From assembly GCA_036275835.1 (NCBI GenBank), contig DASUDA010000191.1, positions 263 through 64,262 on the forward strand: 64,000 nucleotides of DNA, read 5' to 3'. Source of the DNA: a bacterium (lineage in GTDB: Bacteria > Sysuimicrobiota > Sysuimicrobiia > Sysuimicrobiales > Segetimicrobiaceae). The translations under genes and the position numbers were made by a program. The notes beneath the pieces are model-generated. The model saw only the letters and a list, made by a program, of their open reading frames with translations, was not told the origin of the DNA and searched no databases. Shown one piece after another: positions 2,967 through 39,218 of this stretch (position 1 is the first letter of the stretch; every line of letters begins with the position of its first letter).

Positions 2967-2969
2967 GCG

Positions 2970-4124: not shown

Positions 4125-4140
4125 GACGGGGGCGGCGTCG

Positions 4141-7231: not shown

Positions 7232-7540
7232 CCAGATCATGCGCCCGCCTCCTACATGCGTGACCTGACTGCCGACCACGCCCATTATAACAGAGGAGTC
7301 CACAAGTATCATCACGTCCGGCCGGCGGAATCATCCGGCAACCCGGAGAGTACTGCCGGGGGTTCTGAGGAAGAAAGAGTAAGATCAGGGTCCGATTCCT
7401 GCGTCTCCCTCCCGCGGGGTGATCATCTCCTCAATGAAGGAGCCGTACTTCCTCAGGCCATCCTCGCGTCCGCACTGTGATTCCTCTCGCCGCCATGCGC
7501 ACCCGCCGGGAGGTTGCCGAAGAGGGTATACTAGGGCGGG

Positions 7541-8977
7541 ATGACTCGGACGGCAGAGCATGCTCCTGTGAAAACTGACCACGCCGCTCTCCTTGACGTC
7601 CGCCTCAGTGCGGCGATCGCGCTCGGCAAGGCGACGGCCACCCTGAGCCGCTTTCTCCACTGGGGCGGAGGCACGACGATGCCGGGGCGAGTCGCCCGGG
7701 CGGTGGAGCCGCGTCTCCTGCGGCGTCTCTCCGGGCGCCTCTCCGGCGGCAGCGTGGTGATTGCCGGGACGAATGGGAAGACGACGACTGCCCACCTGCT
7801 GGTCCATATCATGCGGGCGGAGGGCCACCGGCCGGTGCACAATCGCGCGGGGGCCAACCTGGCCGCCGGTATCGCGTCCGCGCTCGTCGAGCAGGCCGAC
7901 ATTCGAGGCCGGCCGCGGGGAGATCTCGGCATTTTCGAGGTGGACGAGGCGACGGTGCCGCGCGTGATGCCGGTCCTCGCCCCGCGCGTCGTCGTGTTCA
8001 CAAACCTGTTCCGCGACCAGCTGGACCGCTACGGGGAGATCGACTACATCGCCGGCCTGTGGCGGTCCGCGGGGACGGCGGTTCCCTGGGATCTCGTGTA
8101 TGTCGCCAACGCCGACGATCCCCTGGTCTTCGACGCGGTGAGGGACCTGCCGGGCAGGCTCGTGACGTTCGGCGTTGAGGATGAGCGCCACGCGCTTCCG
8201 GCGATGGAGCACACGGCGGAGGCCCGATACTGCTACCGCTGCGGCACGCCCTACGAATACGCGGTGACCTACTTCGGCCACATGGGCACCTACCGCTGCC
8301 CCACCTGCGGTGTCCACCGCCCCACCCCCGATCTGATCGCGCGTGATCTTGCGCTCGCAGGGCCCGACGGAAGCGAAATGACGATCGAAGCGACGGGGGG
8401 AGGTGCGGTGCGGGTTCGCACCGTGCTGCCGGGGCTCTTCAATGTCTACAACGTCCTTGCCGCCACGGCGGCGGCCCTCCAGCTCGGCGCGTCCCTGCGC
8501 CGCGCGGGAGACGCCCTGGCCTCCTTTGCCCCCGCCTTCGGCCGGGCTGAGCGTGTGCGGGTCGGTGAGCACGAGGTGCAGATGCTGCTCGTCAAGAATC
8601 CGGCCGGGTTCAATGAGGTCCTGCGCACGGTCCTGGCCGCGGGTCCGCTGCCGGTTGTTCTCATTGCCATCAACGACCAGATCGCGGACGGTCGGGACGT
8701 CTCCTGGCTGTGGGACGTCGACGTGGAAATGCTCGCCGGCCGGGTCGGCCGGGTGATCGTGACCGGCCTCCGGGCCGAGGACATGGCGGTGAGGCTGCGG
8801 TACGCTGGAGTCCCGCAGGACGCGATTGAAGTCGAGCATGCGTATGACCGGGCGCTCCGTCGCGCGTTCGACCACTCCACCGCCGGAAGGGTGTTCGTGC
8901 TCCCGACGTACACCGCGATGCTGGCACTGCGCGGCGTCCTCGAGCGCTGGGGGGCGGTGAGGGGGTTCTGGGAATGA
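7541..8977 (+). CDS. murT: Lipid II isoglutaminyl synthase, Mur-ligase-like subunit MurT
   Basis: Mur ligase P-loop GTNGKTTT, a Cys-rich ribbon (CYRCG...CPTCG), and the C-terminal DUF1727 region. It is followed by gatD with an ATGA overlap. Confidence 0.85.
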   Translation: MTRTAEHAPVKTDHAALLDVRLSAAIALGKATATLSRFLHWGGGTTMPGRVARAVEPRLLRRLSGRLSGGSVVIAGTNGKTTTAHLLVHIMRAEGHRPVHNRAGANLAAGIASALVEQADIRGRPRGDLGIFEVDEATVPRVMPVLAPRVVVFTNLFRDQLDRYGEIDYIAGLWRSAGTAVPWDLVYVANADDPLVFDAVRDLPGRLVTFGVEDERHALPAMEHTAEARYCYRCGTPYEYAVTYFGHMGTYRCPTCGVHRPTPDLIARDLALAGPDGSEMTIEATGGGAVRVRTVLPGLFNVYNVLAATAAALQLGASLRRAGDALASFAPAFGRAERVRVGEHEVQMLLVKNPAGFNEVLRTVLAAGPLPVVLIAINDQIADGRDVSWLWDVDVEMLAGRVGRVIVTGLRAEDMAVRLRYAGVPQDAIEVEHAYDRALRRAFDHSTAGRVFVLPTYTAMLALRGVLERWGAVRGFWE

Positions 8978-9726
8978 GTCCGACGCTGCGCATCTGCCAT
9001 CTCTATCCCGACCTCCTGAACCTCTACGGAGACAGAGGGAACATCATCGTGCTCGTCACCCGCGCACGCTGGCGCGGGATCGAGGCGACCGTGACCGAGG
9101 CGCCTCTCGGGACGCGCATCACCCCGGACGGCGCCGACCTGTTCTTCATCGGCGGCGGAGAGGACCGCCAGCAGCGCATCGCCGCCGGAGACCTCGCCGC
9201 CATGAAGCGCGGACCGCTGGAGGAGGCTGTGGACGATGGCGCGGTCGTGCTCGCCGTGTGCGGCGGTTATCAGCTCGTCGGCCGGTTCTACCGCCCAGCA
9301 GAGGGGGATGATCTCCCAGGAATCGGTCTGCTGGATCTCTGGACGGAGCATCCCGGTCCGCAGGCCCGCCGCCTGATCGGCAACCTTGTCATCCAGCCGG
9401 AGGACGGGGATCCGCCGCTCGTGGGGTTCGAGAATCACGGAGGGCGCACCCGCCTCGGGCCGGGAGCGCGGCCGCTGGGGCGGGTGATCTCCGGCTTTGG
9501 CAATAACGGCGAAGACGGGTGGGAAGGCGCGGTGTCGAAGCGGGTATACGGGACGTATTTGCATGGGCCCCTGCTGCCGAAAAACCCCGTGTTCGCCGAC
9601 CGCCTCATTCGCGAGGCGCTCAACCGGCGGCACCGCGGGTTCGAGCTTCCCCCGCTTCCCAACATGCTGGAGGAGCAAGCTCGCGCCGCGATCCTCGCGC
9701 GGATCGGCAAGACCACCTCTGCCTGA
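8974..9726 (+). CDS. gatD: Lipid II isoglutaminyl synthase, glutaminase subunit GatD (CobB/CobQ-like GATase)
   Basis: Catalytic Cys in AVCGGYQL and the His region YGTYLHGP. It is translationally coupled to murT. Confidence 0.85.
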   Translation: MSPTLRICHLYPDLLNLYGDRGNIIVLVTRARWRGIEATVTEAPLGTRITPDGADLFFIGGGEDRQQRIAAGDLAAMKRGPLEEAVDDGAVVLAVCGGYQLVGRFYRPAEGDDLPGIGLLDLWTEHPGPQARRLIGNLVIQPEDGDPPLVGFENHGGRTRLGPGARPLGRVISGFGNNGEDGWEGAVSKRVYGTYLHGPLLPKNPVFADRLIREALNRRHRGFELPPLPNMLEEQARAAILARIGKTTSA

Positions 9727-14772: not shown

Positions 14773-15510
14773 GTGCCGGTGCCGCCTCCCCCGCGCCTGG
14801 TCTTCGTGCACGGCGCGGGGGGAACGTCTCGTGGCTGGGACCTGCAGCGCCTGGCCTTTCCGGAGGCGCTGGCTGTCGACCTTCCGGGCCGCGGCGGCGA
14901 GCGACCTGCATACCGGCGGATCGAAGATTCTGCCGCCTGGCTCCGGGCGGCCGGGCGCGCAGAGGGGTGGTTCCCGGCTGTCCTGGCGGGACACTCGATG
15001 GGCGGAGCGATCGCCCTGTGGTCGGCTCTTTCCTACCCGGACGATCTCGCGGGCCTCGTGCTGATTGCCACAGGAGCCCGCCTCCGGGTGGCTCAGGCGA
15101 TCCGTGAGATGCTGGCCTCCGATTACCCGGCGGCGGTGGACGCGATCATCGCGCGGTCGCTCGGCCCGGGTGCGGATCCCAGGCTCGCGCGCAGGCTCGG
15201 CGAGGCCATGAGGGCTGTCCCGGCGGAGGTCACCGCGGCGGACTTCCAGGCCTGCGACACCTTCGACGTCATGGGACGTCTCGAGGAGATCCGCATCCCG
15301 GCGCTCGTGATCGCCGGACGCGAGGATCAGATGACGCCTCCGCGGTACGCGGAGTTCCTGCATGCGCACCTGACCCGGTCCCGCCTGGCCTGGGTGGAGG
15401 GAGCAGGGCACATGGTGCACGTCGAGCGGCCCCGGGAGGTGAATGAGGCGATTCGCCTATTCCTGGACGATCTCGGCGCTGCCGGCACTGGTCATCCTGC
15501 GCAAGGGTAG
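14773..15510 (+). CDS. Alpha/beta hydrolase; first gene of the putative catabolic operon
   Basis: VFVHGAGG oxyanion region and the nucleophile elbow GHSMGG. It has a GTG start. Confidence 0.75.
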
Positions 15511-15553
15511 CCGAGGGGAGGACCGGCTCCGGACGCCGGGGAATACTCGCGCG

Positions 15554-16363
15554 ATGAAGCCCGCCACGAATCTGCGTCAACGAGAGGGAGCGTCCCCCCG
15601 GGACCTCCGGCTGCGTATGCGCCGCGGGGAATGGCAGACCCCGACCGCCGGGCTGGCCCCCGGGTTTGCCCAGGCGAACCTGGTGGTCGTGTCCCGGGAG
15701 ATGGCGTACGACTTCCTCGTGTTTTGTCAGCGGAACCCGAAACCCTGTCCGCTTATTGATGTGACCGATCCGGGGAGCCCTGAGCCGGCCTTCGCCGCTC
15801 CGGGGGCAGACCTGCGGACCGACCTCCCCCGGTACCGCGTGTACCGGCAGGGGAGGCTGGACGCCGAGGAGACCGAGATCACCCGCTGCTGGCGGCCCGA
15901 TCTTGTGGGGTTTCTCCTGGGATGCTCGTTCACGTTCGAGGGGGCGATGCAGCGCGCCGGGCTCCCCGTCCGCCACATTGAGGACGGCCGGAACGCTCCG
16001 ATGTACGTCACGGCCATCCCCTGCCGCCCTGCAGGCCCGTTCCGTGGCCCCATGGTCGTCAGCATGCGGCCGTTTCCCCCGGGAGACGTTCCACGCGCGA
16101 TGCTCGTGACGGGGCGCTATCCCCGCGCGCACGGGGCCCCCGTCCACGCCGGCGATCCAGGGGCGATCGGCATCCGGGACCTCGCCCGTCCGGAGTTCGG
16201 AGACCCTCCACGGATGGAACCGGGAGAGGTGCCGGTGTTCTGGGCGTGTGGGGTGACCCCGCAGGCCGTAGCCCAGGCCGCCAGTGTCGATTTCATGATC
16301 ACCCACGCGCCCGGGCACATGTTCATCACCGATCTTCTCGACGAGGATCTGGCGGCCGGCTGA
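15554..16363 (+). CDS. YcsI/UPF0317 (DUF1445) putative hydro-lyase; D-glutamate-cyclase-like
   Basis: Family-typical blocks [63 protein letters not shown]. The ATG at 15554 was chosen from within the longer track ORF. Confidence 0.75.
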
Positions 16364-16388
16364 CCCACGACGCGACCACGGGCTGGAG

Positions 16389-17681
16389 GTGAAGATCATG
16401 CAGCGGCATCGTGTCACGCGACGCGGCTTCCTGAAGCTGTCCGGGGTGGCCGCCCTGGCCGCAGGCGGGTGGCGGGCCGGTCCGGCGTCGGCACAAGCGG
16501 AGGAGATCAAGATTGGAGCCCTCTACCCGCTCACGGGGTCGCTGGCCCGGGTCGGGGCGAACATGAAGAAGGCCGTGGATCTCGCGGTCGAGATCATCAA
16601 CGCACCGCACCCCGAGCTCGCCCCCCTTACCCTGGCGGCCTCGTCCGGGCTGCCTCGCCTCGGGGGGCGCAGGATCCGCCTGGTGTGGGCGGACGCCAAG
16701 GATCCGGCGACAGCGCGGGCGGAGGCGGAGCGGCTCATCGACGAGGAAAAAGTCGTCGCGTTGATGGGATGTTACGCCAGCGCGTTCACCGCCACGGCCA
16801 GCCTGGCGGCGGAAACCCGAGGCGTTCCGTTTGTGAACCCGGAATCCTCCTCGCCCACCCTCACCAAGCGGGATTTCAAGTGGTTCTTCCGCACCGGGCC
16901 GCACGATGGGATCTTCACCGCGATGTTCTACAAGATGTTCGCCGACCTCAAGACGCAGGGCCGGCGCATCGGCAAGATCGCGATCCTCTCGGAGAACACC
17001 GAGTTCGGCGCCAGCGCAACACGCGTAGAAGAAGAGATGGGTAAGAGTGAAGGCTATCAACTGGTGGCGCGCGAGATGTACACCTCTCCCCCGGCGAGCC
17101 TCGATGCCGAGCTGACCCGCATCCGGGCATCCGCACCCGACGCGCTCATCGCCAATGGCTACCTGATCGATGCTGTGACGACGATCAGGACGCTCAAGAC
17201 GATGGGGTACTTCCCGCCGGCGCTGGTGGCGCAGGATTCCGGCTACGTCCTTCCCGACTACGTGAAAGACACGGGCAAGGACGGAGACTACATTATCAGC
17301 CGGGCGTCGTGGGCGTTGGGCCTCGGCGTGCGCAAGCCGCTTGTCCGGAAAGTCAACGATGTGTACCGCAGCCGCTACAATGAGGACATGGACGAGACGA
17401 ATGCGCGGAGTTTTACGGGGCTCCTCGCGCTGGCGGATGCCATCAACCGGGGGGGCGGGACCGGGCCCACACTGATCCTCCAAGGGCTGCTCACAACGAA
17501 CATTCCCGGGGGAGAGACGATCATGCCGTGGCAGGGGATCAAGTTTGACAAGGATGGCCAGAACATGTACGCCATCGGCGTCATGGTGCAGTTGCTCGGC
17601 GGCCAGTACAAGGTCGTCTGGCCGTTCGATCTGGCGGAGACGGCGGTCGTCTGGCCCGCCCCGGCGTGGGCGAACCGCTGA
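16389..17681 (+). CDS. ABC transporter substrate-binding protein (Liv/branched-chain amino acid type) with a Tat-like signal
   Basis: RRGFLKLSGVAALAAG twin-arginine leader and a periplasmic-binding-protein type I fold pattern. Confidence 0.8.
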   Translation: MKIMQRHRVTRRGFLKLSGVAALAAGGWRAGPASAQAEEIKIGALYPLTGSLARVGANMKKAVDLAVEIINAPHPELAPLTLAASSGLPRLGGRRIRLVWADAKDPATARAEAERLIDEEKVVALMGCYASAFTATASLAAETRGVPFVNPESSSPTLTKRDFKWFFRTGPHDGIFTAMFYKMFADLKTQGRRIGKIAILSENTEFGASATRVEEEMGKSEGYQLVAREMYTSPPASLDAELTRIRASAPDALIANGYLIDAVTTIRTLKTMGYFPPALVAQDSGYVLPDYVKDTGKDGDYIISRASWALGLGVRKPLVRKVNDVYRSRYNEDMDETNARSFTGLLALADAINRGGGTGPTLILQGLLTTNIPGGETIMPWQGIKFDKDGQNMYAIGVMVQLLGGQYKVVWPFDLAETAVVWPAPAWANR

Positions 17682-17761
17682 CCGTCCGGCGGCCCCTCTC
17701 GGTCCATTTGGGGGAGCCCACCCCGCGCCTGCGGGGGTAGTCCCTCCGACAGCCGCAGCGC

Positions 17762-18628
17762 GTGGATCTCTTTCTCGCCGCGTCTGTCAACGGCCTCATC
17801 ATGGGACTCGTCTATGCCCTGGTGTCCCTGGGCCTCGGATTGATCTGGGGCGTCATGGACGTGGTGAACTTTGCGCACGCGGAGTACATGATGCTGGCGA
17901 TGTACGCTACCTTTTTTGCCGGCGGGTGGCTGCACCTGGACCCCTTCGGAGCGCTTCCGCTGGTCGCCCTGCTGGGATTCGCCGCCGGAGTGGGGACGTA
18001 CGTGGTCCTGATCCGCCGGATCGTGGGCGCCTCGATGGTCACCCAGATCTTCGCGACCTTTGGGCTGCTGTTCTTTCTCCGCTACCTGGCCTTCGCCGTT
18101 TTCGGCCCCGATTTCCGCGGGATCACCTGGCCTCTCGCGGGCGGCAGCATCGAGATCGCCGGCGTGCCGGTGAGCACGGCCAAAGCCCTGGCGGCGTCGG
18201 CGGCGCTCGTCACTTACGCGGGTCTGCACATGTTCTTACAGTACACGAAGACCGGAAAAGCCCTCCAGGCCGCGGCCCAGAACCCGGTCGCCGCCCTCGC
18301 CCTCGGGATTGAGGTGGACCGGATGTACGCGCTGGCGTGGGGCCTCAGCATCGCCACGGCTGCGGTCGCCGGGAACTTCCTCCTCCCGTTCTACCAGGTC
18401 AGCCCCACGGTGGCCGATGCCTTCCTGTTGATCACGTTTGCGAGTGTCGTGCTCGGCGGGTTCGGCAGCCTGCTCGGGCCGCTGGTGGGGGGTGTGGCGA
18501 TCGGGCTCATTGAAGGGATCGCCGGGACGCTGATCTCGCCGACGTTCAAATTGTTCTTTGTCTTTGCGGTGTTTCTGCTCGTGCTCTTCCTGCGGCCCGC
18601 GGGGCTCCTCGGCGCAGCGCAGAGATGA
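17762..18628 (+). CDS. Branched-chain amino acid ABC transporter permease (LivH-like)
   Basis: Polytopic membrane protein with the LivH-type N-terminus (LIMGLVYALVSLGL). Confidence 0.8.
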   Translation: MDLFLAASVNGLIMGLVYALVSLGLGLIWGVMDVVNFAHAEYMMLAMYATFFAGGWLHLDPFGALPLVALLGFAAGVGTYVVLIRRIVGASMVTQIFATFGLLFFLRYLAFAVFGPDFRGITWPLAGGSIEIAGVPVSTAKALAASAALVTYAGLHMFLQYTKTGKALQAAAQNPVAALALGIEVDRMYALAWGLSIATAAVAGNFLLPFYQVSPTVADAFLLITFASVVLGGFGSLLGPLVGGVAIGLIEGIAGTLISPTFKLFFVFAVFLLVLFLRPAGLLGAAQR

Positions 18629-20388
18629 CGGTTCTCGCCGGGGCCCTCTGGGCCGGGCTGGCGGTCCTTCCCGCGGTCGTCCACAACGCCTACTTTCTCA
18701 ACGGGATGATCCTCGTCTTCATCTACGGGACCGCCGCGCAGGCGTGGAACCTCCTGGGGGGCTATTGCGGACAGCTCTCGTTCGGGCACGCGGTGTTCTT
18801 TGGGGTCGGCGCCTACACGAGCACGCTTCTCCTCATTCACGCCGGGGTCACCCCCTGGAGCGGGATGTGGGCGGGGGCGGCGCTTGCCGCGCTTCTCTCG
18901 CTCATCGTGGGCTACCCGACGTTTCGCTTGCGGCGCCACTACTTCGCGCTGGCGACGCTGGCGCTCGCGGAGATGGTACGGATCCTGTTCCTCAACTGGC
19001 CGTTCGTGGGCGCCGCGGTCGGGGTCTACCTGCCTCTCTCCTTGATGAACCGGCCTTGGGCGTTCATGTGGAATACGAAGCCGCCCTACTACGAGGCGGC
19101 TCTTGCGCTGTTCGGCCTCGCCTGCGCGCTGGTGGCGGTCACCGACCGGACGCGGCTGGGTCTGTACCTCCGCGCGATCGATCAGGACGAGGACGCGGCT
19201 GCGGCGCTGGGCATTCCCGCCCGGAAATATAAGCTGCTCGCGATGGGCCTCAGCGCCGCCCTCACCGCCCTGGCGGGATCCGTGTTCGCCCAATACATCC
19301 TCTACATCGACCCGTCGACTGTTCTCGATCCGTCGCGGTCCGTGCTGTTCGCGGTCATGGCCCTGCTGGGAGGCCGAGGAACCGTGATCGGTCCCGCGCT
19401 GGGGGCCGGATTCCTCACGCTGCTCTCGCAGTACGCCGGCGGCACGCTGGGCGGTCTTGGCCGCGGCTACGATTATGTCTTGTACGGGCTGGCCATCATG
19501 CTCGTCGCCGTGTACGAGCCGCGGGGTCTCGTGGGCGTTCTCGCCCTCCTCGGCCGGGCGATGCGGCGGGGGCCGAGGCGGCCGGTGACCACCGCGCCGG
19601 TTCCATCCCCCGGCGCCGGCCCGCGCGGGGCCGATCCCCGGACGTCACTTCTCGATGTCGAAGCGCTCGTGAAGCGGTTCGGAGGAGTAGAGGCGCTGCG
19701 GGGAGTCACCCTAAGCGTGCGGCGGGGGGAGATCGTGGGAGTCCTGGGGCCGAACGGCGCCGGAAAATCCACGCTCTTCGACTGCATTACCGGGTTCACG
19801 GTGCCGTCGGGGGGGACCATCGTCCTTCGGGCCGGCGGCAGCGACCGCGTGCTGGCGGGCCGCGCTCCCGCGTGGATCGCGCAGCAGGGGCTCGCGCGGA
19901 CGTTTCAGCTCATCCGCGTCTTCCCCGGTCTGACGGTTCTGGAAAACATGCTGGCCGGGCAGGAGCACCGGGGCGAGCCGCTTTTCCACGTGTTTCGATC
20001 GAGCCCTCGCGAGGTCCGGGAACGGGTGGAAGACCTTCTGCGGCTTGTCGGGCTCGAGGGGTCCCCGGACGCCCTCGCGGGGGAACTGTCGTATGGGCAG
20101 CAGAAGCTGCTCGCGCTGGCGATGACGCTCGTCCGCGGCCCGCGCCTGGTCTTGCTCGACGAGCCGGTAGCGGGCGTGACCCCCGCCGTGATCGAACGGC
20201 TGAAGAACCACATCCGCGCGCAGAACGCCGCGGGCGTCACCTTCCTGATCATCGAGCACAACATCGACGTCCTGACGGAACTGGCCGACCGTCTCTACTT
20301 CCTGGCGGACGGCCGCGTCGTGACGGAGGGGCCGCCTGAGGCCATTCAGCGGAGCGAGGAGGTCCTGAGCCTGTACTATGGACGGTAG
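18625..20388 (+). CDS. Fused LivM-type permease (N-terminal ~300 aa) and LivG-type ATP-binding domain (C-terminal)
   Basis: A hydrophobic N-terminal half is followed by GPNGAGKST Walker A, the LSYGQQK signature and the Walker B LLDEP, all in one uninterrupted frame. Confidence 0.8.
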   Translation: MTVLAGALWAGLAVLPAVVHNAYFLNGMILVFIYGTAAQAWNLLGGYCGQLSFGHAVFFGVGAYTSTLLLIHAGVTPWSGMWAGAALAALLSLIVGYPTFRLRRHYFALATLALAEMVRILFLNWPFVGAAVGVYLPLSLMNRPWAFMWNTKPPYYEAALALFGLACALVAVTDRTRLGLYLRAIDQDEDAAAALGIPARKYKLLAMGLSAALTALAGSVFAQYILYIDPSTVLDPSRSVLFAVMALLGGRGTVIGPALGAGFLTLLSQYAGGTLGGLGRGYDYVLYGLAIMLVAVYEPRGLVGVLALLGRAMRRGPRRPVTTAPVPSPGAGPRGADPRTSLLDVEALVKRFGGVEALRGVTLSVRRGEIVGVLGPNGAGKSTLFDCITGFTVPSGGTIVLRAGGSDRVLAGRAPAWIAQQGLARTFQLIRVFPGLTVLENMLAGQEHRGEPLFHVFRSSPREVRERVEDLLRLVGLEGSPDALAGELSYGQQKLLALAMTLVRGPRLVLLDEPVAGVTPAVIERLKNHIRAQNAAGVTFLIIEHNIDVLTELADRLYFLADGRVVTEGPPEAIQRSEEVLSLYYGR

Positions 20389-21103
20389 CCCGGCGCTGCT
20401 GGCGGTGGACGATCTCCACGCCGGCTACGGCCAGCAGGAAGTGCTGCGCGGAGTGACGCTCACCGTGCGGCCGGCGGAGACCGTCTGCATCATCGGCCCC
20501 AACGGCGCGGGAAAGTCGACGCTGCTCCGCACGGTGTTCGGCTTCCTCCGTCCCGCCCGGGGCACGATCTTCTTCGCCGGGACCTCTCTCGTCGGCCGCC
20601 GGCCTCCGGAGATCCTCCGGCAGGGGATCGCCTACGTGCCACAAGGGGTCAGCGTCCTTCCGCACCTCAGCGTGGAGGACAACCTCCTGCTCGCCGCCTA
20701 CATCCGGGAGGACCACGGCGTGCGCGGCGACATCGAGCGCTTGCTGGTGTCTTTCCCCGCGCTTGCGGAGCGCCGGCGCCGGCCCGCCCGGACCTTGAGC
20801 GGTGGTGAGCGGCGGATGCTGGAGATCGCGCGCATCCTGCTGGTGCATCCCCGGCTCGTGTTGCTGGATGAGCCGACGATCGGCCTGGCGGGCGTCGTGA
20901 TGGAGTTTGTCTATGAGAAGATTCGCGAGTTTCACCGCCGCGGCGTGGCGGTGCTGCTCGTCGAGCAAAATGCGCGCACGGCGCTGCGCCACAGCCACCG
21001 GGCCTACGTCCTCGAGCAGGGGCGCGTGCGGTTCGAGGGAAGCGGCGAAGAGATCCTGGCCCACCCGGACGTGCGGCGGGTCTATCTGGGGGAACGCGTA
21101 TGA
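20378..21103 (+). CDS. ABC transporter ATP-binding protein (LivF-like)
   Basis: GPNGAGKST Walker A, LSGGERRML signature, and Walker B LLDEP. Confidence 0.85.
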   Translation: MDGSPALLAVDDLHAGYGQQEVLRGVTLTVRPAETVCIIGPNGAGKSTLLRTVFGFLRPARGTIFFAGTSLVGRRPPEILRQGIAYVPQGVSVLPHLSVEDNLLLAAYIREDHGVRGDIERLLVSFPALAERRRRPARTLSGGERRMLEIARILLVHPRLVLLDEPTIGLAGVVMEFVYEKIREFHRRGVAVLLVEQNARTALRHSHRAYVLEQGRVRFEGSGEEILAHPDVRRVYLGERV

Positions 21104-23166
21104 CCGGCGCCCGGTGCCGGATCGGCGTGGACGTCGGAGGGACGTTTACCGACCTCATCGCCGCGCCCGAGGACGGCGGCGGTCTCATCCCGGTCAAGCT
21201 CCTCAGCACGCCCCGCTCGCCGGCGGACGGCGTGATCGACGCGCTCACCCGGTTCCTCGGGGGAAACGACGCGAACGCGAGCTACCTGGTGCACGCGTCC
21301 ACGATCGGCACAAACCTGTTCCTCGGCCAGATGGGACTCACCCTTCCCCGCACAGCCCTGGTGTGCACCGAAGGGTTTCGTGACGTCCTCGAGATCGGCC
21401 GCCAGCGCCGCGCCGAGTTGTACAATCTCTTCTATCAGCGGCCTCGCGCCCTCGTCGACCGCCGGCATCGAATCGGGATCCCGGAACGAATCGATTGGGA
21501 GGGGCGCGTCGTGCGTCCTCTCGATGAAGAGAGCGTCCGCGCCGCGGGCCGCCGGCTCGCCGCCGAAGGCGTCGAGGCCGTGGCGATCGCGTTTCTGCAC
21601 AGCTACGCCAATCCGGCGCACGAGCGGCGGGCGAAGGCGCTGCTGGCCGAGATCCTGCCGCAGGCCGTCGTCATCGCGTCCAGCGAGGTGGACCCCGAAT
21701 ACCGGGAGTACGAGCGCACGAGCACGACAGTCGTCAACGCCGTGCTCTCACCCGTCGTGTCGCGATATCTCCGCAGCCTCGCCCACCGCTTGCCGCAGGG
21801 GATGTCCGGGACGCCGCTGTACGCGATGCAGAGCAGCGGGGGCATCACGACGATCGAGGGCGCGGCGGCGACCCCCGGCGCGGTCATCGAATCTGGCCCT
21901 GCCGCGGGCGTCGTCGGCGCCGCCGCGTTCGCCCGGACCCTGGGCCTCGCCCGCGCGCTCAGCTTTGACATGGGCGGCACGACCGCCAAGGCCGGCGCCG
22001 TGATCGACGGCCGGCCGGAGGTCGTCACGGAGTACGAAGTCGGCGGCGTGGTGCACGCCGGAAGGATCGTGCGCGGCAGCGGCTATCCCGTCCGCTCCCC
22101 GTTCATTGACCTGGCCGAGGTGAGCGCGGGCGGCGGCACCGTGGCCTGGGTGGACGACGCCGCGCTGCGCTGCGGGCCGGTGAGCGCGGGCGCGGATCCT
22201 GGGCCCGCCTGTTACGGCCTCGGGGGCGACCGCCCAACGGTCACAGACGCTCACCTGGCGCTTGGCCTGCTGTCTCCGGAAGGCCTCCTGGGAGGGCGGA
22301 TGGGTCTGTCGCGCAGCGCCGCGGAGCGCGCGCTCAAGACGGTTGCCGGCCCGCTGGGGTTGGAGCTCACCGCCGCCGCCGCCGGAATCCTGGAGGTCGT
22401 CAACGCGCAAATGGCCCGGGCGCTCCGGATCGTCTCGCTCGAGCGCGGCCATGATCCGCGGGAGATGGTGATGGTGGCGTTCGGCGGCGCCGGACCGATG
22501 CACGCGGCGGCGCTCGCCGACGATCTGGGCATCAGGGAGGTGGTGATCCCCGCGACCCCCGGCCTGTTCTCGGCGGTGGGATTGCTGGCGGCCGATCTCC
22601 GGTGCGACCGCGTGGAGAGCGTCATGCGGCCGCTGGCGCATGTCGACGGCGCCTGGCTGGAGACACGATTTCGCCACCTCGACGCGGAGGCGCGGCAGGC
22701 CGTGCAAGACGGCGACGGGCGGCGGAGGGTGGTCGTACAGCGGGGTCTCGATCTCCGCTACATCGGGCAGTCGTACGAACTGACCGTGCCGGGCGAGGTG
22801 GGGGTGGAGAAGGCGGCGGAGGCGTTCCGGGCCCGCCACGCGGACATTTACGGATACGCGCCCGCCCAGGAACCGGTCGAGGTCGTGAACGTGCGCGTGA
22901 CGGCGTTTGGGATCATGCCGTCCCTCGCATTCGAGGCGGCGCGCGCCGCCTCGCCATCCGCGCATGCACCGCAGACCCGGCAGGCGTATCTTGCGGGCCG
23001 GTGGGAAGAGGTCCCGGTCCTGACCCGGAGCGCGCTCGAGCCGGGACGGCACGTGGCCGGCCCCGCGATCGTCGAAGAGAGCGATGCCACGACGGTCGTT
23101 CCTCCCGGATGGTCGGTGCGCGCCGAGCAGGCGGGAACGCTCCGCATGAGGAGGACCCGGATGTAA
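21100..23166 (+). CDS. hyuA: Hydantoinase/oxoprolinase family protein, A subunit (HyuA-like)
   Basis: N-terminal GVDVGGTFTD and overall hydantoinase A architecture (688 aa). Its start overlaps the upstream stop. Confidence 0.85.
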   Translation: MTGARCRIGVDVGGTFTDLIAAPEDGGGLIPVKLLSTPRSPADGVIDALTRFLGGNDANASYLVHASTIGTNLFLGQMGLTLPRTALVCTEGFRDVLEIGRQRRAELYNLFYQRPRALVDRRHRIGIPERIDWEGRVVRPLDEESVRAAGRRLAAEGVEAVAIAFLHSYANPAHERRAKALLAEILPQAVVIASSEVDPEYREYERTSTTVVNAVLSPVVSRYLRSLAHRLPQGMSGTPLYAMQSSGGITTIEGAAATPGAVIESGPAAGVVGAAAFARTLGLARALSFDMGGTTAKAGAVIDGRPEVVTEYEVGGVVHAGRIVRGSGYPVRSPFIDLAEVSAGGGTVAWVDDAALRCGPVSAGADPGPACYGLGGDRPTVTDAHLALGLLSPEGLLGGRMGLSRSAAERALKTVAGPLGLELTAAAAGILEVVNAQMARALRIVSLERGHDPREMVMVAFGGAGPMHAAALADDLGIREVVIPATPGLFSAVGLLAADLRCDRVESVMRPLAHVDGAWLETRFRHLDAEARQAVQDGDGRRRVVVQRGLDLRYIGQSYELTVPGEVGVEKAAEAFRARHADIYGYAPAQEPVEVVNVRVTAFGIMPSLAFEAARAASPSAHAPQTRQAYLAGRWEEVPVLTRSALEPGRHVAGPAIVEESDATTVVPPGWSVRAEQAGTLRMRRTRM

Positions 23167-23216
23167 CTCGGCGGCCGACCATGCCTCGCGGACGCCATTA
23201 AGCGACTACTCTGGAG

Positions 23217-24860
23217 GTGACGACGCGACTGGTGAGACCCGATCCCGTCACGGTCGAAGTGATCCGGAACGCGATGGTGTACGCGGCGGAAGAGATGGGC
23301 CTCTCTCTCCGGAACGCGAGCTATTCCCCGAACATCAAGGAGCGGATGGACCACTCCTGCGCTCTGTTTGATGCGGACGCCCGCCTGATCGCGCAGGCGG
23401 AGCACATTCCCGCCCACCTGGGCTCGATGCCGCTGGGCGTGCGGAACACGGTGCCGTTGCTCCGCGCCCGGCCTCAGCACCCCGGCGACGTCTTCATCAT
23501 CAACGATCCCTACATCGCCGGCACCCACCTCAACGACATCATGGTGATCCGACCGCTCTTCCATCAGGGAGAGATCATCGGGTACAGCGCCAACAAGGCC
23601 CACCACGTGGACGTCGGCGGCCGCACGCCGGGCAGTCTCAGCAGCGATGCCCGGGAACTGTGCGAAGAAGGGGTGCGGATCCCTCTTCTGCCCATCATCC
23701 GCGAGGGGCGCGAAGTTCCGGAAACGGTCGAGATGATCCTGGCCAACGTCCGGTCCCCGGACACCACGCAGGGCGACCTCCGGGCGCAGATCGCGGCGGC
23801 CTCCCTGGGCGAGCGGCGCGTGGCCGAGCTCCTGGCGCGGCACGGGTGGGAGCGCATGGAGGCGGCCTGGGCGGCGATTCTCGATCAGGGGGAGGCGCAG
23901 GCGCGCCGCGCGTTTGCGTCGCTGCCCCCCGGCCGGTACGCGGCCGAGGACTGCCTGGAGGACGACGGCACACCGGGCGGGCTCCTCTGGCTGCGCGTCG
24001 CGGTCACGGTGGATCCCGCCGCGGTCCGCGTGGATTTCAGCGGAACGGATCCTCAGGTGCCCCGGCCGATCAATGCGGTGTTCGGAGTGACCGTGGCCGG
24101 AGCGGTCTACGCTCTGAAGGCCGTGTGCGATCCTGGGACGCCGATGAATGAGGGCTGGCTGCGTCCGGTCGAGGTCATCGCCCCGCCCGGCACGGTGATC
24201 AACCCCGTCCGTCCGGCCCCGGTGGGCGTGGGGAACACAGAGACCAGCCAGCGTGTGGCCGACGTGGTGCTGCGCGCGCTCGCCGAGGCCGTCCCGGCCC
24301 GGGTGCCGGCAGCGTCAAACGGGTCGATGAGCAACGTGACCGTGGGTGGGTTCGATTCCCTCCGCGCTCGCCCGTGGACGTTTTACGAGACGATCGCCGG
24401 TGGGATGGGGGGACGGCGGGGGCTTGACGGAATCGACGGCATTCACTGCAACATGACGAACACGATGAACACGCCGATCGAGGCGATCGAGCAGGGGCTG
24501 CCTCTCCGGTTTCTCGCCTACGAGTTTCGCCCAGGGACGGGCGGCCGGGGGCGGTGGCGGGGCGGGTGCGGCGTCTGCCGGGCGTGGGAGCTGCTCGCGG
24601 ACGAGGCGACGGTCTCGATCCTCACCGAGCGCACCCGGGTCGCGCCGTGGGGCCTGGCCGGGGGGGAATCGGGCGGGCTGGCCCGCCATCGCGTGCGCAG
24701 GGCTGACGGCCGTGAGGAGGTGCTGCCGCCGAAGCACACCACCCGCCTGCGTCGCGGCGATGTTCTGATCATGGAGACCCCGGGCGGCGCCGGGTACGGG
24801 GATCCGGCGGATCGCGATCCGGCGGCGGCGCGGCGGGACCGGGAGAACGAACTGGCCTGA
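23217..24860 (+). CDS. hyuB: Hydantoinase B/oxoprolinase family protein, B subunit (HyuB-like)
   Basis: N-terminal DPVTVEVIRNAMVYAAEEMG and the rest of the hydantoinase B family pattern (547 aa). Confidence 0.85.
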   Translation: MTTRLVRPDPVTVEVIRNAMVYAAEEMGLSLRNASYSPNIKERMDHSCALFDADARLIAQAEHIPAHLGSMPLGVRNTVPLLRARPQHPGDVFIINDPYIAGTHLNDIMVIRPLFHQGEIIGYSANKAHHVDVGGRTPGSLSSDARELCEEGVRIPLLPIIREGREVPETVEMILANVRSPDTTQGDLRAQIAAASLGERRVAELLARHGWERMEAAWAAILDQGEAQARRAFASLPPGRYAAEDCLEDDGTPGGLLWLRVAVTVDPAAVRVDFSGTDPQVPRPINAVFGVTVAGAVYALKAVCDPGTPMNEGWLRPVEVIAPPGTVINPVRPAPVGVGNTETSQRVADVVLRALAEAVPARVPAASNGSMSNVTVGGFDSLRARPWTFYETIAGGMGGRRGLDGIDGIHCNMTNTMNTPIEAIEQGLPLRFLAYEFRPGTGGRGRWRGGCGVCRAWELLADEATVSILTERTRVAPWGLAGGESGGLARHRVRRADGREEVLPPKHTTRLRRGDVLIMETPGGAGYGDPADRDPAAARRDRENELA

Positions 24861-25659
24861 CCTCCCGGCAGAGCCGCACCGCGAGGGCCACCAGTTCCGC
24901 GTTGTCGCGAGCGAGCGCGCCATCCGGGCCGACCGTCGTGTCCTCCAGGCCGATGCGAATGTCGTGGCCCCCCACGATCGCCGACCGCAGCACCGCCCAC
25001 GTGGCGAGGCCGTTCCCGTGGTGCACCTGCCGCAGCGTCACCCCGGCGTCCTCGAGACGGGCGCTGATGGCGCTGGCGACCGCGACGGCCCGCGCGGAAT
25101 CCTCCGCGGTCGGCTCGATGAGGACGCGCAGACAGCTCTGAGGGAGCCCGCTCCCCAGAAAGCGGTCGGCGTCGTCGGTGTCCCAGAGCCCGGCCTCGAT
25201 CCCCACGCCGTCACGGATGAGCGCACGGCAGAGGTCGTGAACCCCCTCTTCCCGGACGTTGACGGAGACAAAGTCCGGCTTCACCCTCCACTCCGAGACA
25301 TGCGCGATGCGCCGCGTCAGGTCGGGCTCCGCGTCCGCGATGGTGCTGAGACCGACGGGCACGCCGGGGCACGCCCTCCGGATCGCGGCGACGACGGCGT
25401 CGACCGTGGCGGGCTCAAGCGTTTGCGCGCCGTCCGGGCGCAGCGCATGAACATGGAGCGCCCCCGCCCCGGCGGCGATGGCCCCGGCGGCGGCACGGGC
25501 GATCTCGTCGGGCGAGATCGGGACGGCGGGATGCTGGGCCCGTGTCGTGCCGCCGTTGAGGCAGGCCTTGAGCAGAATGCGTTCATCCACGCTCCGGTGT
25601 TCTCCCCTGTGGGGAGGGCTTCCTACGCCGCGGCACGTATCAGATGACAGGAGCGCCAT
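24769..25659 (-). CDS. BKACE family protein (DUF849; 3-keto-5-aminohexanoate cleavage enzyme-like)
   Basis: Family N-terminal block ILLKACLNGGTTRAQHPAVPISPDEIA. I trimmed the 547-aa track ORF to the in-frame ATG at 25659. The 3' end overlaps hyuB convergently by about 90 nt, and the tail is Pro/Arg-rich. Confidence 0.65.
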   Translation of the reverse strand: MALLSSDTCRGVGSPPHRGEHRSVDERILLKACLNGGTTRAQHPAVPISPDEIARAAAGAIAAGAGALHVHALRPDGAQTLEPATVDAVVAAIRRACPGVPVGLSTIADAEPDLTRRIAHVSEWRVKPDFVSVNVREEGVHDLCRALIRDGVGIEAGLWDTDDADRFLGSGLPQSCLRVLIEPTAEDSARAVAVASAISARLEDAGVTLRQVHHGNGLATWAVLRSAIVGGHDIRIGLEDTTVGPDGALARDNAELVALAVRLCREVRPVRSPGPAAPPPDRDPPDPRTRRRPGSP

Positions 25660-25698
25660 GTCGCCGCGAGGGTCACAACGTCGCGCGCGGGCAGGAGG

Positions 25699-26478
25699 GT
25701 GTCCGTGGGGCGGGCCGTGGACATTAACTGCGACCTGGGGGAGAGTTTCGGCGCGTACACGATCGGGGACGACTCCGCGATGATGCCCGTCATCACGTCC
25801 GCCAACATCGCGTGCGGGTTTCACGGGGGAGACCCGCTGGTGATGGAGCGCACCGTGCGCCTGGCGCGCGAGCATGGAGTCGAGATCGGGGCGCATCCGG
25901 GTTTTCCCGACCTGTGGGGGTTCGGCCGCCGCGAGATGCGCTTGTCCGCCGACGAGCTCCGGGCGGTGCTCACATATCAGATCGGCGCCCTGTGGGCGTT
26001 CGCCCGCGCCCAGGGGACGCGGCTGCAGCACGTCAAGCCCCATGGCGCCCTGTATAATATGGCGGCCAACGACGCGGGATGGTCGCGCGTCATCGCCGGC
26101 GCGATCGCCAGCATCGATTCCGGTCTGATTCTGGTGGCGTTGCACGGCTCCGTCATGGAGCGCTCTGGCCGGGACGCGGGCCTGCGGGTTGGCCGCGAGG
26201 CGTTCGGGGACCGCGCCTATAACGCGAACGGGACCCTGGTGCCCCGCGCGCGTCCCGACGCGCTCATCACGGAACCCGCGGCGGTGGCCCGCCGCGTCGT
26301 CGAGATGGTCACGGAGGGGACCGTGGAAACAGTGGACGGCGGTGAGATTCGCCTGGCCCCCGACACGCTCTGCTTCCACGGCGATACGCCGGGAGCGCCT
26401 CGCCTCGCTCACGCAGCACGGGATGCGCTCGTGCGCGTTGGCGTGGAGATCGCGCCGATGGGCCGATGGCTCTCGTGA
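25699..26478 (+). CDS. pxpA: 5-oxoprolinase subunit A (LamB/YcsF family)
   Basis: LamB/YcsF blocks (DINCDLGESFG, NIACGFHGGDP, HVKPHGALYN). No pxpB/pxpC homologs are present in the window. Confidence 0.85.
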   Translation: MSVGRAVDINCDLGESFGAYTIGDDSAMMPVITSANIACGFHGGDPLVMERTVRLAREHGVEIGAHPGFPDLWGFGRREMRLSADELRAVLTYQIGALWAFARAQGTRLQHVKPHGALYNMAANDAGWSRVIAGAIASIDSGLILVALHGSVMERSGRDAGLRVGREAFGDRAYNANGTLVPRARPDALITEPAAVARRVVEMVTEGTVETVDGGEIRLAPDTLCFHGDTPGAPRLAHAARDALVRVGVEIAPMGRWLS

Positions 26479-27362
26479 CGTCCTCCCGCGCCGCCGGCCT
26501 CGACTGGCGGCTCACCCTCGCGTTCATCGACACGGCTGGCGGCGAGATGGAGCGCGCCCGGCTGCGCGGCCTGCTCGGCCGCGCCCGTCCGGATCCCAAG
26601 GCCGTTCTCACGCTTGAGGCGCGGCAGAATCTCGACGGCGGGTTTCCGCACGACCTGATCCACCAGGGGCAGCCTTCTACGATTCGGGCGACGGCAACCG
26701 CGCTCACCTGGCTGGAGGACCTCGGTCTCCGCGGTGGCCCCCTCGTTGACCACGTCCTCACCTTTCTTCTGGCGGTTCAGCGGCCCGACGGCTCCTGGGA
26801 CGAACCCCCGGGTGTGCTCCGCTACGGGCCGCCGACGCACCTCATACCCGGCGATCCTAGGGTTCGGGCCCTCTCCACCGCGCTGGCGGCCTACTGGCTC
26901 GCACGGATGCGGTATGGAGGTGATGCGATCTCACGCGCCGTCGCATACCTGCGGGCGCGCCAGGCGCCGGACGGGCGCTTCCTGGGATTTCTTCGGACGA
27001 CGTGGCTGGGGACGGCTCTTTTCAGGCTCGTGGAGGGGGAGGACTCGGCCTGCGCCGGACGGGGCCTTGAGGCGCTTTCAGCCGTGGACGCGAACCGGTG
27101 GCATCCCGGCGCCTTGGCCGGGATGCTCGCCTGCCTGGCGGAGGTGGGTGTGCCGGAGAACCAGCCGCTCATCGCGCGCAGCCTTGCGCGCCTGCGGAGC
27201 CTCGCCCGGCTCGACGGATCGTGGCTGTCCGAGGACGGTGACCTCTCTCCTGTGGAGCTGACCCTGCGGGCGCTGCGCGCGCTCCTCCTCTATGGCGCCG
27301 TCTCCCCCGGGCCGGAGCGGGATGTGGCGGGGCCACCGGCCGTACCTCGCGGACGCCCCTGA
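26466..27362 (+). CDS. Prenyltransferase/squalene-oxidase-repeat (alpha-alpha toroid) protein, function unknown
   Basis: Repeated Q..DG(S/R)(W/F) motifs (QNLDGGFPHD, QRPDGSWDE, QAPDGRF, LDGSWLSE). It overlaps the pxpA stop by 13 nt. Confidence 0.55.
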   Translation: MALVTSSRAAGLDWRLTLAFIDTAGGEMERARLRGLLGRARPDPKAVLTLEARQNLDGGFPHDLIHQGQPSTIRATATALTWLEDLGLRGGPLVDHVLTFLLAVQRPDGSWDEPPGVLRYGPPTHLIPGDPRVRALSTALAAYWLARMRYGGDAISRAVAYLRARQAPDGRFLGFLRTTWLGTALFRLVEGEDSACAGRGLEALSAVDANRWHPGALAGMLACLAEVGVPENQPLIARSLARLRSLARLDGSWLSEDGDLSPVELTLRALRALLLYGAVSPGPERDVAGPPAVPRGRP

Positions 27363-27412
27363 TCGACTATGATGGGGGCGACGACGCGACCGGCGGCGCA
27401 AGCGGCGCAAAG

Positions 27413-27751
27413 ATGAGCATCCAGGTGCTTCAGCAGATCCAGGGCGTGGTGAGCGAGGCAGTCGAGGAGCGCCGCGGACTCGTCGTCTACTCCAGGTTGG
27501 AACCGGCGGAGATGGACCGTCTTGCCCGCCGGCTCGAGCGAGAAGCGCTTGAGAAGATCCGGCGCCTTCTTCCTGAGCAGACGGTGGACCAGCGGGTGCT
27601 CGGCGTTCGGCACCGCCTGGAGCGGATGGAGAATGAACTCACCGAACTAGGAGGGCACGGCGAGATCCGGGAAACCAGCCGGCAAATGCAGACCGATGAG
27701 ATCGTGTGGCAGGCGTTTGAAGATATTGCGTGGATGCTCGGGGTGGAGTAA
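27413..27751 (+). CDS. Hypothetical protein (112 aa, charged and helical)
   Basis: The ORF has good GC3 bias. I did not recognise a family. Confidence 0.4.
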   Translation: MSIQVLQQIQGVVSEAVEERRGLVVYSRLEPAEMDRLARRLEREALEKIRRLLPEQTVDQRVLGVRHRLERMENELTELGGHGEIRETSRQMQTDEIVWQAFEDIAWMLGVE

Positions 27752-27762
27752 GCCGGGGCGGC

Positions 27763-28134
27763 CTATCGCCGGCGGCCGCCGCGCTTGGCTTCGGTGTTCC
27801 GCTTGAGGTCGAGGAGACGCTCTTCGCTTTCCTTCAAGAACTTGGCCAGTTTGTCTTCGAAAGACGCCTTCGCCTTCGCGCGCGCCTGACGTTCCGCCGG
27901 GTCCAGCGCCTGCTTGACCGAGAGATCGAGCTTGCCTTTCTCATTGTAGCCGAGCACCTTGACCTTGACGCGCTCCTGTTCTTTCAGGTAGTCACGCACG
28001 TCTTTGACATAGGTGTCGGCAATCTCGGAGATGTGAACGAGGCCGCTCTTTCCATCGGGGAGTTCTACGAAAGCGCCGTAGTGGGTGATTTTGACGACGA
28101 CGCCTTCCAAAATCGTACCTGCCTCAAGACTCAT
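27763..28134 (-). CDS. S1 RNA-binding domain protein (YabR/general stress protein 13-like)
   Basis: S1 domain pattern (EGVVVKITHYGAFVEL..GLVHISEI) with a Lys/Arg-rich C-terminal tail. It sits in the position of Firmicute yabR. Confidence 0.8.
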   Translation of the reverse strand: MSLEAGTILEGVVVKITHYGAFVELPDGKSGLVHISEIADTYVKDVRDYLKEQERVKVKVLGYNEKGKLDLSVKQALDPAERQARAKAKASFEDKLAKFLKESEERLLDLKRNTEAKRGGRRR

Positions 28135-28173: not shown

Positions 28174-28202
28174 ATTATATCTTACTCGCCAAAGGGTGTC
28201 AA
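28174..28202 (-). promoter_or_regulatory. Perfect consensus sigma-A promoter on the minus strand (TTGACA, 17-nt spacer, TATAAT) driving the S1-domain gene
   Basis: The reverse complement of 28174-28202 reads TTGACAccctttggcgagtaagaTATAAT. The RBS AGGAGGGG follows before the start at 28134. Confidence 0.6.
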
Positions 28203-38991: not shown

Positions 38992-39218
38992 TCCCCCACC
39001 TCCATGCCCCGGCCCGGGACAGGATCTTGGTCATGCGCGGGCACACGAAAACGCCTCCCGAGCACATGCTCGAAAGGCGTCGCGGCCCGAGGTACGGCTC
39101 AGTACCCAGCGATTCTTATACCATGCCGGCGCGATGGAGTCAACAGCACCGCGTCTCACGGGCGCCAGGAGTTTCGCCACGCGCTCTTGTACTCGTTCAC
39201 GGGATCGGGGAAAGCGCG

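Follow-up and report, generated by a model that had tools for sequence, protein, structure and literature searches.

A 64,000-nucleotide stretch of DNA from an uncultivated soil lineage, the Segetimicrobiaceae (contig DASUDA010000191.1 of assembly GCA_036275835.1; this whole stretch is referred to as the window), carries a cluster of eight closely packed genes on one strand between positions 14773 and 24860. They encode an alpha/beta hydrolase, a YcsI/DUF1445 protein, a Liv-type ATP-binding cassette (ABC) importer, and the hydantoinase/oxoprolinase-family proteins HyuA and HyuB. With moderate confidence, we favor the reading that this cluster serves to take up pyroglutamate (5-oxoproline) and to convert it to glutamate by ATP-dependent ring opening. 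Because HyuAB takes the position of PxpABC, we regard the locus as a variant of the known cluster composed of a transporter, an ATP-dependent 5-oxoprolinase, and YcsI. The core of the system is 15554-24860, and the hydrolase gene at 14773 is an optional accessory.

All open reading frames (ORFs) previously described between 14773 and 27362 were recovered at the same coordinates. Families were assigned by Pfam and NCBIfam profile searches, and every assignment made in a preliminary description of this DNA held. The eight genes of the cluster are as follows.

14773-15510, + strand: alpha/beta-fold hydrolase of a generic esterase or lactonase type (Pfam Abhydrolase_6, E = 3.7e-24)
15554-16363, + strand: YcsI/UPF0317/DUF1445 "putative hydro-lyase" of 269 amino acids (PF07286, D-Glu_cyclase/DUF1445, E = 1e-64)
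16389-17681, + strand: solute-binding protein of the SAR11_0655 family (Peripla_BP_6)
17762-18628, + strand: LivH-type ABC permease (BPD_transp_2, E = 3e-32)
18625-20388, + strand: LivM-type permease fused to a LivG-type ATPase (BPD_transp_2 at residues 24-294, ABC_tran at residues 358-516)
20378-21103, + strand: LivF-type ABC ATPase (ABC_tran and BCA_ABC_TP_C; LivF model, 192 bits)
21100-23166, + strand: HyuA (Hydant_A_N, Hydantoinase_A, and Hydant_A_C)
23217-24860, + strand: HyuB (Hydantoinase_B, E = 3e-199, profile positions 1-519 of 519)

The importer encodes five functions: the solute-binding protein (SBP), LivH, LivM, LivG, and LivF. The LivM-LivG fusion is real, because BPD_transp_2 and ABC_tran both lie in one ORF, on which the LivG model scores 190 bits; the same fusion occurs in five loci from other genomes (L006, L015, L027, L090, and L095; L numbers designate retrieved loci). 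The distances between the eight genes, read from the sequence in order, are 43, 25, 80, −4, −11, −4, and 50 nt, in DNA with a GC content of ~68%. The genes had been proposed to form a single operon. Their number, shared strand, and tight junctions stood, whereas a 5′ boundary at 14773 is not established, because the tight same-strand run begins upstream with genes for DJ-1 (12928), a metallo-β-lactamase (MBL)-fold protein (13613), and DoxX (14327), with gaps of 31, 51, and 20 nt. Scans for promoter and terminator consensus sequences gave nothing above chance within the cluster, and we therefore infer cotranscription from spacing and conservation only.

The substrate assignment begins with the binding protein. 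The window SBP matched Protein Data Bank (PDB) entry 8WCH over its full length (E = 1.6e-87, 297 bits) and was clearly separated from other Liv-type SBPs, the next PDB sequence scoring 62 bits. Entry 8WCH is SAR11_0655, crystallized with copurified L-pyroglutamate, which it binds with a dissociation constant of <5 nM; the protein, which has pxpABC in its gene neighborhood, was assigned in 2024 to a previously unrecognized class of ABC transporters (PMC11485210). The window SBP is 38% identical to SAR11_0655 over 398 residues, and SBPs of other DUF1445 loci are 36-55% identical to it. Likewise, the LivH-type permease is 40-45% identical to permeases of DUF1445/Pxp loci. The importer adjoins HyuAB in the window, and homologs of its SBP adjoin PxpABC in L015, L027, L057, and L083. 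This homology to the L-pyroglutamate binder agrees with the earlier suggestion that an oxoproline-like lactam is imported and ring-opened. The SBP N-terminus carries a twin-arginine motif (RRGFLK), and the start of the protein is more probably the ATG at 16398.

HyuA and HyuB, encoded by adjacent genes, contain the full-length domains of the hydantoinase/oxoprolinase family (in HyuA, Hydant_A_N at E = 1e-93, Hydantoinase_A at 3e-49, and Hydant_A_C at 3e-14). The highest PDB scores were to 7HK5, a fused "N-methylhydantoinase" of 1288 amino acids (393 bits for HyuA and 298 for HyuB), followed by caprolactamase (6YRA_A, 364 bits; 6YRA_B, 246 bits). Searches on entries 7HK5 and 9H03 gave no further identification of the fused enzyme. 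Acetone carboxylase scored only 223 and 65 bits, and the acetone/acetophenone carboxylase (Apc) models fell far under their cutoffs. We therefore rejected a carboxylase identity for HyuAB, and the pair lies outside the acetone-carboxylase clade, placement in which the preliminary description had named as grounds for abandoning its proposal. Equivalence to the caprolactamase CapAB was also rejected: against cutoffs of 1000 bits, the models NF050156 and NF050157 gave 493 bits for HyuA and 284 bits for HyuB.

We compared catalytic residues at CapA D11 and the four metal ligands of CapB, whose roles are known (PMC8453981). Asp11 of the ATP site is kept in HyuA, within the motif GVDVGGTFTD, and CapB D41, H99, D102, and H124 align with HyuB D45, H104, D107, and H129. 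We propose that HyuA is the ATP-binding (alpha) subunit of an ATP-dependent lactamase and HyuB its metal-dependent ring-opening (beta) subunit, that is, the putative large and small subunits of a 5-oxoprolinase. Pfam screens detected no carbamoylase, hydantoin racemase, omega-aminotransferase, or aldehyde dehydrogenase gene at the window locus. A route for hydantoin or for caprolactam and other omega-lactams is disfavored because the follow-on enzymes of such routes are missing at the locus. We assign 5-oxoproline as the likely substrate because, with no follow-on enzymes present, HyuAB sits where PxpABC would otherwise stand, next to YcsI and an importer of the pyroglutamate type.

The PxpABC enzyme itself, defined by three subunits encoded together, is not encoded here, and PxpA alone is present. 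The absence of PxpB and PxpC, noted earlier, extends to the full 64-kb window, in which neither tblastn nor profile hidden Markov models (HMMs) built from 34 and 36 sequences detected them.

Taken together, these features would fit the following sequence of events. An SBP of the SAR11_0655 family, exported by the twin-arginine pathway, would capture pyroglutamate or a very close analog outside the cell, and the LivH/LivM-LivG/LivF transporter would bring it into the cell. HyuA would then phosphorylate the lactam with ATP, and HyuB would hydrolyze the activated ring at its metal site to yield glutamate; phosphorylation followed by hydrolysis is the mechanism proposed for the HyuA/HyuB enzyme family. 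HyuAB would occupy, as a nonorthologous replacement, the slot held by PxpABC in most bacteria. YcsI would be a conserved extra component acting on a small molecule of the 5-oxoproline/glutamate pair.

We examined relatives of the window for conservation of this arrangement. The nearest species-level genome match, found by the DUF1445 search, is labeled "Bacillati bacterium ANGP1." The full eight-gene order (hydrolase, DUF1445, SBP, LivH, LivMG, LivF, HyuA, and HyuB) is present in two loci (L090 and L095), a minimal DUF1445-HyuA-HyuB core in four (L089, L093, L094, and L101), and the beginning of DUF1445-HyuA on the short contig of L008. In these contigs of the lineage, HyuB is 79-88% identical to that of the window. 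Beyond the lineage, HyuAB is found beside DUF1445 in place of Pxp in an Armatimonadota metagenome-assembled genome (MAG; L006) and a Thermoleophilaceae MAG (L031). In L006, DUF1445, HyuB-HyuA, and an ABC system of the same type lie side by side, and HyuB is 61% identical to that of the window. The adjacency of DUF1445 and HyuAB, whose lack of conservation the preliminary description had named as grounds against its proposal, is conserved in at least seven lineage contigs and two other phyla, with DUF1445-(ABC)-HyuA-HyuB as the recurring unit.

The hydrolase is not part of this unit. Orthologs 62-71% identical to it occupy the same position in L090 and L095, and it is missing from the four minimal loci; it is an accessory gene, found only in the versions of the module that contain the ABC importer. 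Its best NCBIfam matches were PcaD-like and far under the cutoffs, and its best PDB match was the carboxylesterase 5FRD (117 bits).

To place the window in a broader context, we surveyed 80 DUF1445 loci (L008-L087) from different species, with DUF1445 at 53-79% identity and up to 10 kb of sequence on either side. The window proteins and the PxpB and PxpC proteins of E. coli served as queries in screens of these loci, and the neighboring ORFs were also subjected to unbiased clustering. Pxp genes lie within 6-10 kb of DUF1445 in 36-37 of the 80 loci (about 46%), and in 23 of the 43 loci that have at least 5 kb of flanking sequence on both sides. An NRAMP/YcsG-type gene is present in 19 of the 80. 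The NRAMP-type protein PxpT is the 5-oxoproline uptake system of Corynebacterium glutamicum, and YcsG is required for 5-oxoproline use in Bacillus subtilis (PMC13274462). Liv-type ABC genes with an SBP like that of the window occur in 7-10 of the 80 loci. Three loci, from an Anaerolineae (L015), a deltaproteobacterium (L027), and a Syntrophorhabdaceae (L057), contain a codirectional block of SBP-LivH-LivM-LivG-LivF-PxpA-PxpB-PxpC-DUF1445. HyuAB was near DUF1445 in L008 and L031 of the survey, L006 having been found separately. These contexts define a recurring pattern of YcsI, a 5-oxoproline transporter, and an ATP-dependent 5-oxoprolinase, in which transporter and enzyme each come from families that can replace one another.

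Additional transporter genes were observed at some of these loci. In the Thermoleophilaceae MAG (L031, 403-3717), DUF1445 is followed by a major facilitator superfamily (MFS) transporter gene on the opposite strand and then by HyuA; the transporter slot may here be filled by a third type of protein. L001 and L010 likewise have an MFS gene next to DUF1445. Locus L010 (5564-16836, from an NC10 MAG) encodes an M20 peptidase, a 2-hydroxyacid dehydrogenase, an MFS protein, DUF1445, pyroglutamate-type ABC genes, and PxpA. Its SBP is 55% identical to SAR11_0655, and no PxpB, PxpC, or HyuAB is encoded within 10 kb.

The YcsI protein is the constant element of these contexts. The window protein passes the NCBIfam equivalog model NF003969, "putative hydro-lyase," scoring 404 bits where 324 are required and covering profile positions 6-264 of 266, and matches PDB entries 3DB9 and 2PIF, both named only "UPF0317 protein," with E = 1e-97 to 1e-100. 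The start at 15554 is favored over 15443 because the match begins at residue 46 of the longer ORF and homologs are 267-269 amino acids long. DUF1445 homologs were found at 53-96% identity across phyla, and the protein is strongly conserved in every genomic context (53-79% identity). A quick neighbor-joining tree mostly tracks taxonomy, with the HyuAB-linked sequences forming one clade. YcsI is a conserved companion of bacterial 5-oxoprolinase clusters. Because its partners include two unrelated types of 5-oxoprolinase and transporters of at least two families, it is expected to act on a metabolite and not to be an enzyme subunit; most likely, YcsI carries out one reaction on a small molecule of the 5-oxoproline/glutamate pair and has no role as a structural subunit.

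Further searches were directed at the reaction itself. A literature search for the function of bacterial YcsI, DUF1445, or UPF0317 and for 5-oxo-D-proline metabolism yielded only the mouse enzyme. An AlphaFold2 model of the window DUF1445 protein, built from a 14-sequence alignment, had a mean predicted local distance difference test score of 51, too poor for a fold search. The idea that DUF1445 is a two-thiol racemase found no support, as an hhalign comparison of the DUF1445 alignment with E. coli glutamate racemase (MurI), a test of low power, returned a probability of 0.07%.

Several observations weigh against pyroglutamate as the substrate, a role that is read from sequence and gene context. 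Within the SBP family, no branch is more divergent than that of the window lineage, and the window SBP is only 38% identical to SAR11_0655. As a proxy for the ligand-contact residues of 8WCH, we used family-invariant columns: the window SBP retains 61 of the 79 columns invariant in SAR11_0655 and five Pxp-linked homologs (77%), with 77-80% retained in the window lineage as a whole and 91-97% in L006, L012, and L076. The conserved GAYYSSVT loop carries the substitutions S117A and V118F in the window. Because of this divergence, including the loop changes, the specificity of the SBP may have shifted. In addition, family membership leaves the lactam undecided: in Pseudomonas putida, butyrolactam is the substrate of one Pxp paralog and 5-oxoproline that of another, and OplBA, an enzyme of the HyuAB type, acts on valerolactam. 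5-Oxoproline is not a substrate of CapAB. Two syntenic relatives (L001 and L004) keep DUF1445 without HyuAB and the importer. Conversely, L109 (1-11629) has HyuAB 81% and 74% identical to those of the window without DUF1445. Finally, an aldehyde dehydrogenase gene follows the module in L006. The HyuAB pair of L109, a very close enzyme in another setting, is preceded by a dipeptide-type ABC system (SBP_bac_5, permease, and fused ATPases), a C45/AAT-family hydrolase, and a pyridoxal phosphate-dependent enzyme.

These points bear most directly on the possibility that the same architecture serves another cyclic amide, such as 2-pyrrolidinone, a substituted or hydroxylated pyroglutamate, 6-oxopipecolate, or hydantoin, with the hydrolase processing a precursor. 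We consider this possible but rather unlikely. The proven valerolactam, caprolactam, and butyrolactam specificities of HyuAB- and Pxp-type enzymes, the divergence of the window SBP, and the aldehyde dehydrogenase of L006 would all suit it, as would the hydrolase, which 5-oxoproline itself would not require and which accompanies the importer in the window and in L090 and L095. However, the sole characterized relative of the SBP is specific for L-pyroglutamate, and the SBP homologs beside pxpABC come from four phyla. DUF1445 is found mainly with genes for 5-oxoprolinase and for transporters of 5-oxoproline, scores on the CapA and CapB models remain far below the cutoff, and the window has no downstream genes for processing γ-aminobutyrate, aminovalerate, or N-carbamoyl amino acids.

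Two further readings concern the D enantiomer. In the first, YcsI makes the "wrong" enantiomer usable, and the cluster, whether equipped with PxpABC or with HyuAB, salvages D-glutamate or D-pyroglutamate from peptidoglycan debris to L-glutamate at the cost of ATP. We hold this only as a tentative suggestion with a low likelihood. In its favor, YcsI keeps company with unrelated 5-oxoprolinases of two families and with importers of at least two, as expected of a protein that acts on the metabolite, and the salvage would parallel the N-acetylation/racemization route reported for D-glutamate catabolism. Contrary to it, DUF1445 shows no profile similarity to glutamate racemase, and the neighbor screens of the 80 loci found no D-specific genes around DUF1445.

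The second is a pathway for 5-oxo-D-proline or D-glutamate, raised in the preliminary description, in which YcsI would be a D-glutamate cyclase and HyuAB would be D-specific or nonstereospecific. The mouse D-glutamate cyclase DGLUCY has two domains, one of them PF07286, and the conservation of DUF1445 in all contexts suggests one chemistry tied to 5-oxoproline. However, cyclase activity was measured on the DUF1445-DUF4392 fusion and has not been assigned to either domain, and the paper describing DGLUCY found DUF4392 to be more widely conserved than DUF1445 in animals. A tblastn search with a Pfam-confirmed bacterial DUF4392 sequence detected no homolog in the 64-kb window, so the DGLUCY-type combination of the two domains, fused or adjacent, is absent there. 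In the survey, Pfam-confirmed DUF4392/GLUCM-like_C was present at 15 of the 80 DUF1445 loci, none of which belonged to the 37 loci with Pxp; in bacteria, these two partnerships of DUF1445 exclude each other. Moreover, judging from the known reaction directions, a cyclase would undo the work of an oxoprolinase on the same enantiomer in a futile cycle that wastes ATP, so such a pathway would need an extra step, e.g., epimerization, and the characterized SBP homolog binds the L form. Given this evidence, the D-enantiomer proposal found no support, and we judge it improbable.

A chance adjacency in a variable genomic slot, with no shared function, is very improbable. The region between the DJ-1/MBL genes and the repeat protein gene downstream does vary among close relatives, and no promoter or terminator signal delimits the unit. 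Against this, the order DUF1445-HyuA-HyuB recurs in the lineage contigs and two other phyla, four junctions are overlaps or short gaps, and parallel DUF1445-ABC-PxpABC blocks exist in unrelated phyla.

Three genes downstream of hyuB had been described as flanking the proposed system.

24769-~25590, − strand: BKACE (DUF849; Pfam E = 1e-32, 113.6 bits against a cutoff of 24.8)
25699-26478, + strand: lone PxpA (LamB/YcsF; PF03746, E = 8e-101; NF003814, 359 bits against a cutoff of 226)
26466-27362: repeat protein (weak squalene-hopene-cyclase repeat matches only, E = 3e-7)

The end of hyuB (24860, + strand) and the stop of the BKACE gene (24769, − strand) converge with a 92-nt 3′ overlap (24769-24860). 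The PxpA stop overlaps the start of the repeat gene (26466-26478), which is followed by an ORF of ~112 amino acids without a Pfam match. This trio (window 25699-27751) is also found in L004 (5485-7590), where PxpA occurs without HyuAB, and the repeat gene and ~112-amino-acid ORF are retained in L001 without PxpA, HyuAB, or the importer. L001 (DUF1445 ~80% identical) and L004 (71%) share a backbone of MurT-GatD, MFS, DJ-1, MBL, DUF1445, repeat protein, and the ~112-amino-acid ORF, continuing with an S1-domain gene, DivIC, SLT, enolase, MazG, and Mfd. The repeat protein is part of this local backbone. Where the window carries BKACE and PxpA, its relatives have a minus-strand NAD_binding_2 dehydrogenase gene, located between hyuB (or DUF1445) and the repeat gene in L001, L004, L090, L094, L095, and L101.

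Across the 48 loci retrieved with HyuB relatives, among them five from close relatives with sequence downstream of hyuB, neither PxpA nor BKACE was found. Because PxpA and BKACE are absent with HyuB relatives and the repeat protein persists without the module, we regard all three as neighbors and not as module parts; for the lone PxpA, any relation to the module is uncertain. A hybrid enzyme of PxpA and HyuAB, or a single system spanning all of 14.8-27.4 kb including BKACE and the repeat protein, is highly improbable: PxpA does lie 840 nt downstream of hyuB, and it occurs without PxpBC in two other loci, behind DUF1445 and ABC genes in L010 and near DUF1445 in L004, but, besides its absence from HyuB-relative loci and the dehydrogenase in its slot, an opposite-strand gene separates it from hyuB, and it is start/stop-coupled to a repeat gene that persists without the module. 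The Aspergillus lamA/lamB lactam locus was considered as a precedent for a HyuAB-PxpA pairing, and the comparison was set aside; LamA resembles urea carboxylase and, in this, PxpBC.

Other features of the window were recorded. The S1-domain gene (27763-28134, − strand) has, 40 nt upstream at 28174-28202 on the − strand, a perfect sigma-70 consensus (TTGACA, 17 nt, TATAAT) that matches at 12 of 12 positions. A pair encoding a MurT-like ligase and a GatD-like amidotransferase (7535-9726) is syntenic in L001. MurT/GatD-type enzymes amidate the D-glutamate of peptidoglycan precursors, and we found no link between this pair and the module. A PrkA/DUF444/SpoVR triad is located at 1254-5307, and a tandem universal stress protein (1-918) lies ahead of it. 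A housekeeping and regulatory block at 37549-50936 includes genes for glutamine synthetase, glycerol kinase with GlpA/B/C-like dehydrogenase genes, a membrane H+-pyrophosphatase, and an ANTAR response regulator with a GAF histidine kinase.

The favored reading, pyroglutamate import followed by ATP-dependent ring opening, places the locus among several described systems. The B. subtilis operon is pxpA(ycsF)-ycsG-ycsI-pxpB(kipI)-pxpC(kipA) (PMC10448178), and pxpTABC is the 5-oxoproline utilization cluster of C. glutamicum (PMC13274462). Like these clusters, the window would combine a 5-oxoproline transporter with an ATP-dependent 5-oxoprolinase, and, as in the B. subtilis operon, YcsI is present; the window protein passes the same NCBIfam equivalog model as B. 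subtilis YcsI. Unlike them, the window has a Liv-type ABC importer instead of NRAMP-type YcsG/PxpT and HyuA/HyuB instead of PxpABC; it lacks PxpB and PxpC, and its nearby PxpA is not conserved with the module. The SAR11_0655 system of Pelagibacter ubique HTCC1062 (Clifton et al., Nature 2024) shares the SBP family, the five-function Liv-type importer, and, given the role proposed for HyuAB, an adjoining 5-oxoprolinase, with the difference that the neighboring enzyme is PxpABC in SAR11 and HyuAB in the window, whose SBP forms a divergent branch.

HyuAB itself shares with OPLAH/OXP1, CapAB, OplBA, and the N-methylhydantoinase HyuAB a two-module architecture, with an actin-like ATP site in alpha and an Asp-His-Asp-His metal site in beta. 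Unlike CapAB, the window HyuA and HyuB score about half and a quarter of the equivalog cutoffs, and their gene context, a pyroglutamate-type importer and YcsI, is unlike that of the caprolactam, valerolactam, and creatinine/hydantoin clusters. The window YcsI has in common with mammalian DGLUCY the PF07286 domain and the theme of 5-oxoproline chemistry, and it differs in that the window has no DUF4392 domain or gene.

The combination had been put forward as a pathway not previously described. This view has to be revised, since the slots for importer, ATP-dependent 5-oxoprolinase, and YcsI are each known from the B. subtilis, C. glutamicum, and SAR11 clusters, and the locus is no new kind of pathway. 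The novelty lies in HyuAB standing in for PxpABC beside YcsI and in how widely the pyroglutamate ABC importer family is distributed beyond SAR11.

The locus suggests that, in an uncultivated soil lineage as well as in some members of Armatimonadota and Actinomycetota, the functional 5-oxoprolinase is a eukaryote-type enzyme of the OPLAH family made up of two subunits. To our knowledge, bacterial members of the HyuAB family with a known substrate act on other lactams, and Pxp is regarded as the prokaryotic 5-oxoprolinase. These data also widen the range of the recently discovered class of pyroglutamate ABC importers, described from marine SAR11, to phyla of soil and groundwater, where it is regularly tied to a 5-oxoprolinase and YcsI. 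For the YcsI/UPF0317 family, the question of function, a long-standing one, is narrowed: YcsI stays when the enzyme and the transporter are swapped, and the DUF4392 context excludes the 5-oxoprolinase context. Both the function of YcsI and the existence of a bacterial OPLAH-type 5-oxoprolinase are thereby made directly testable.

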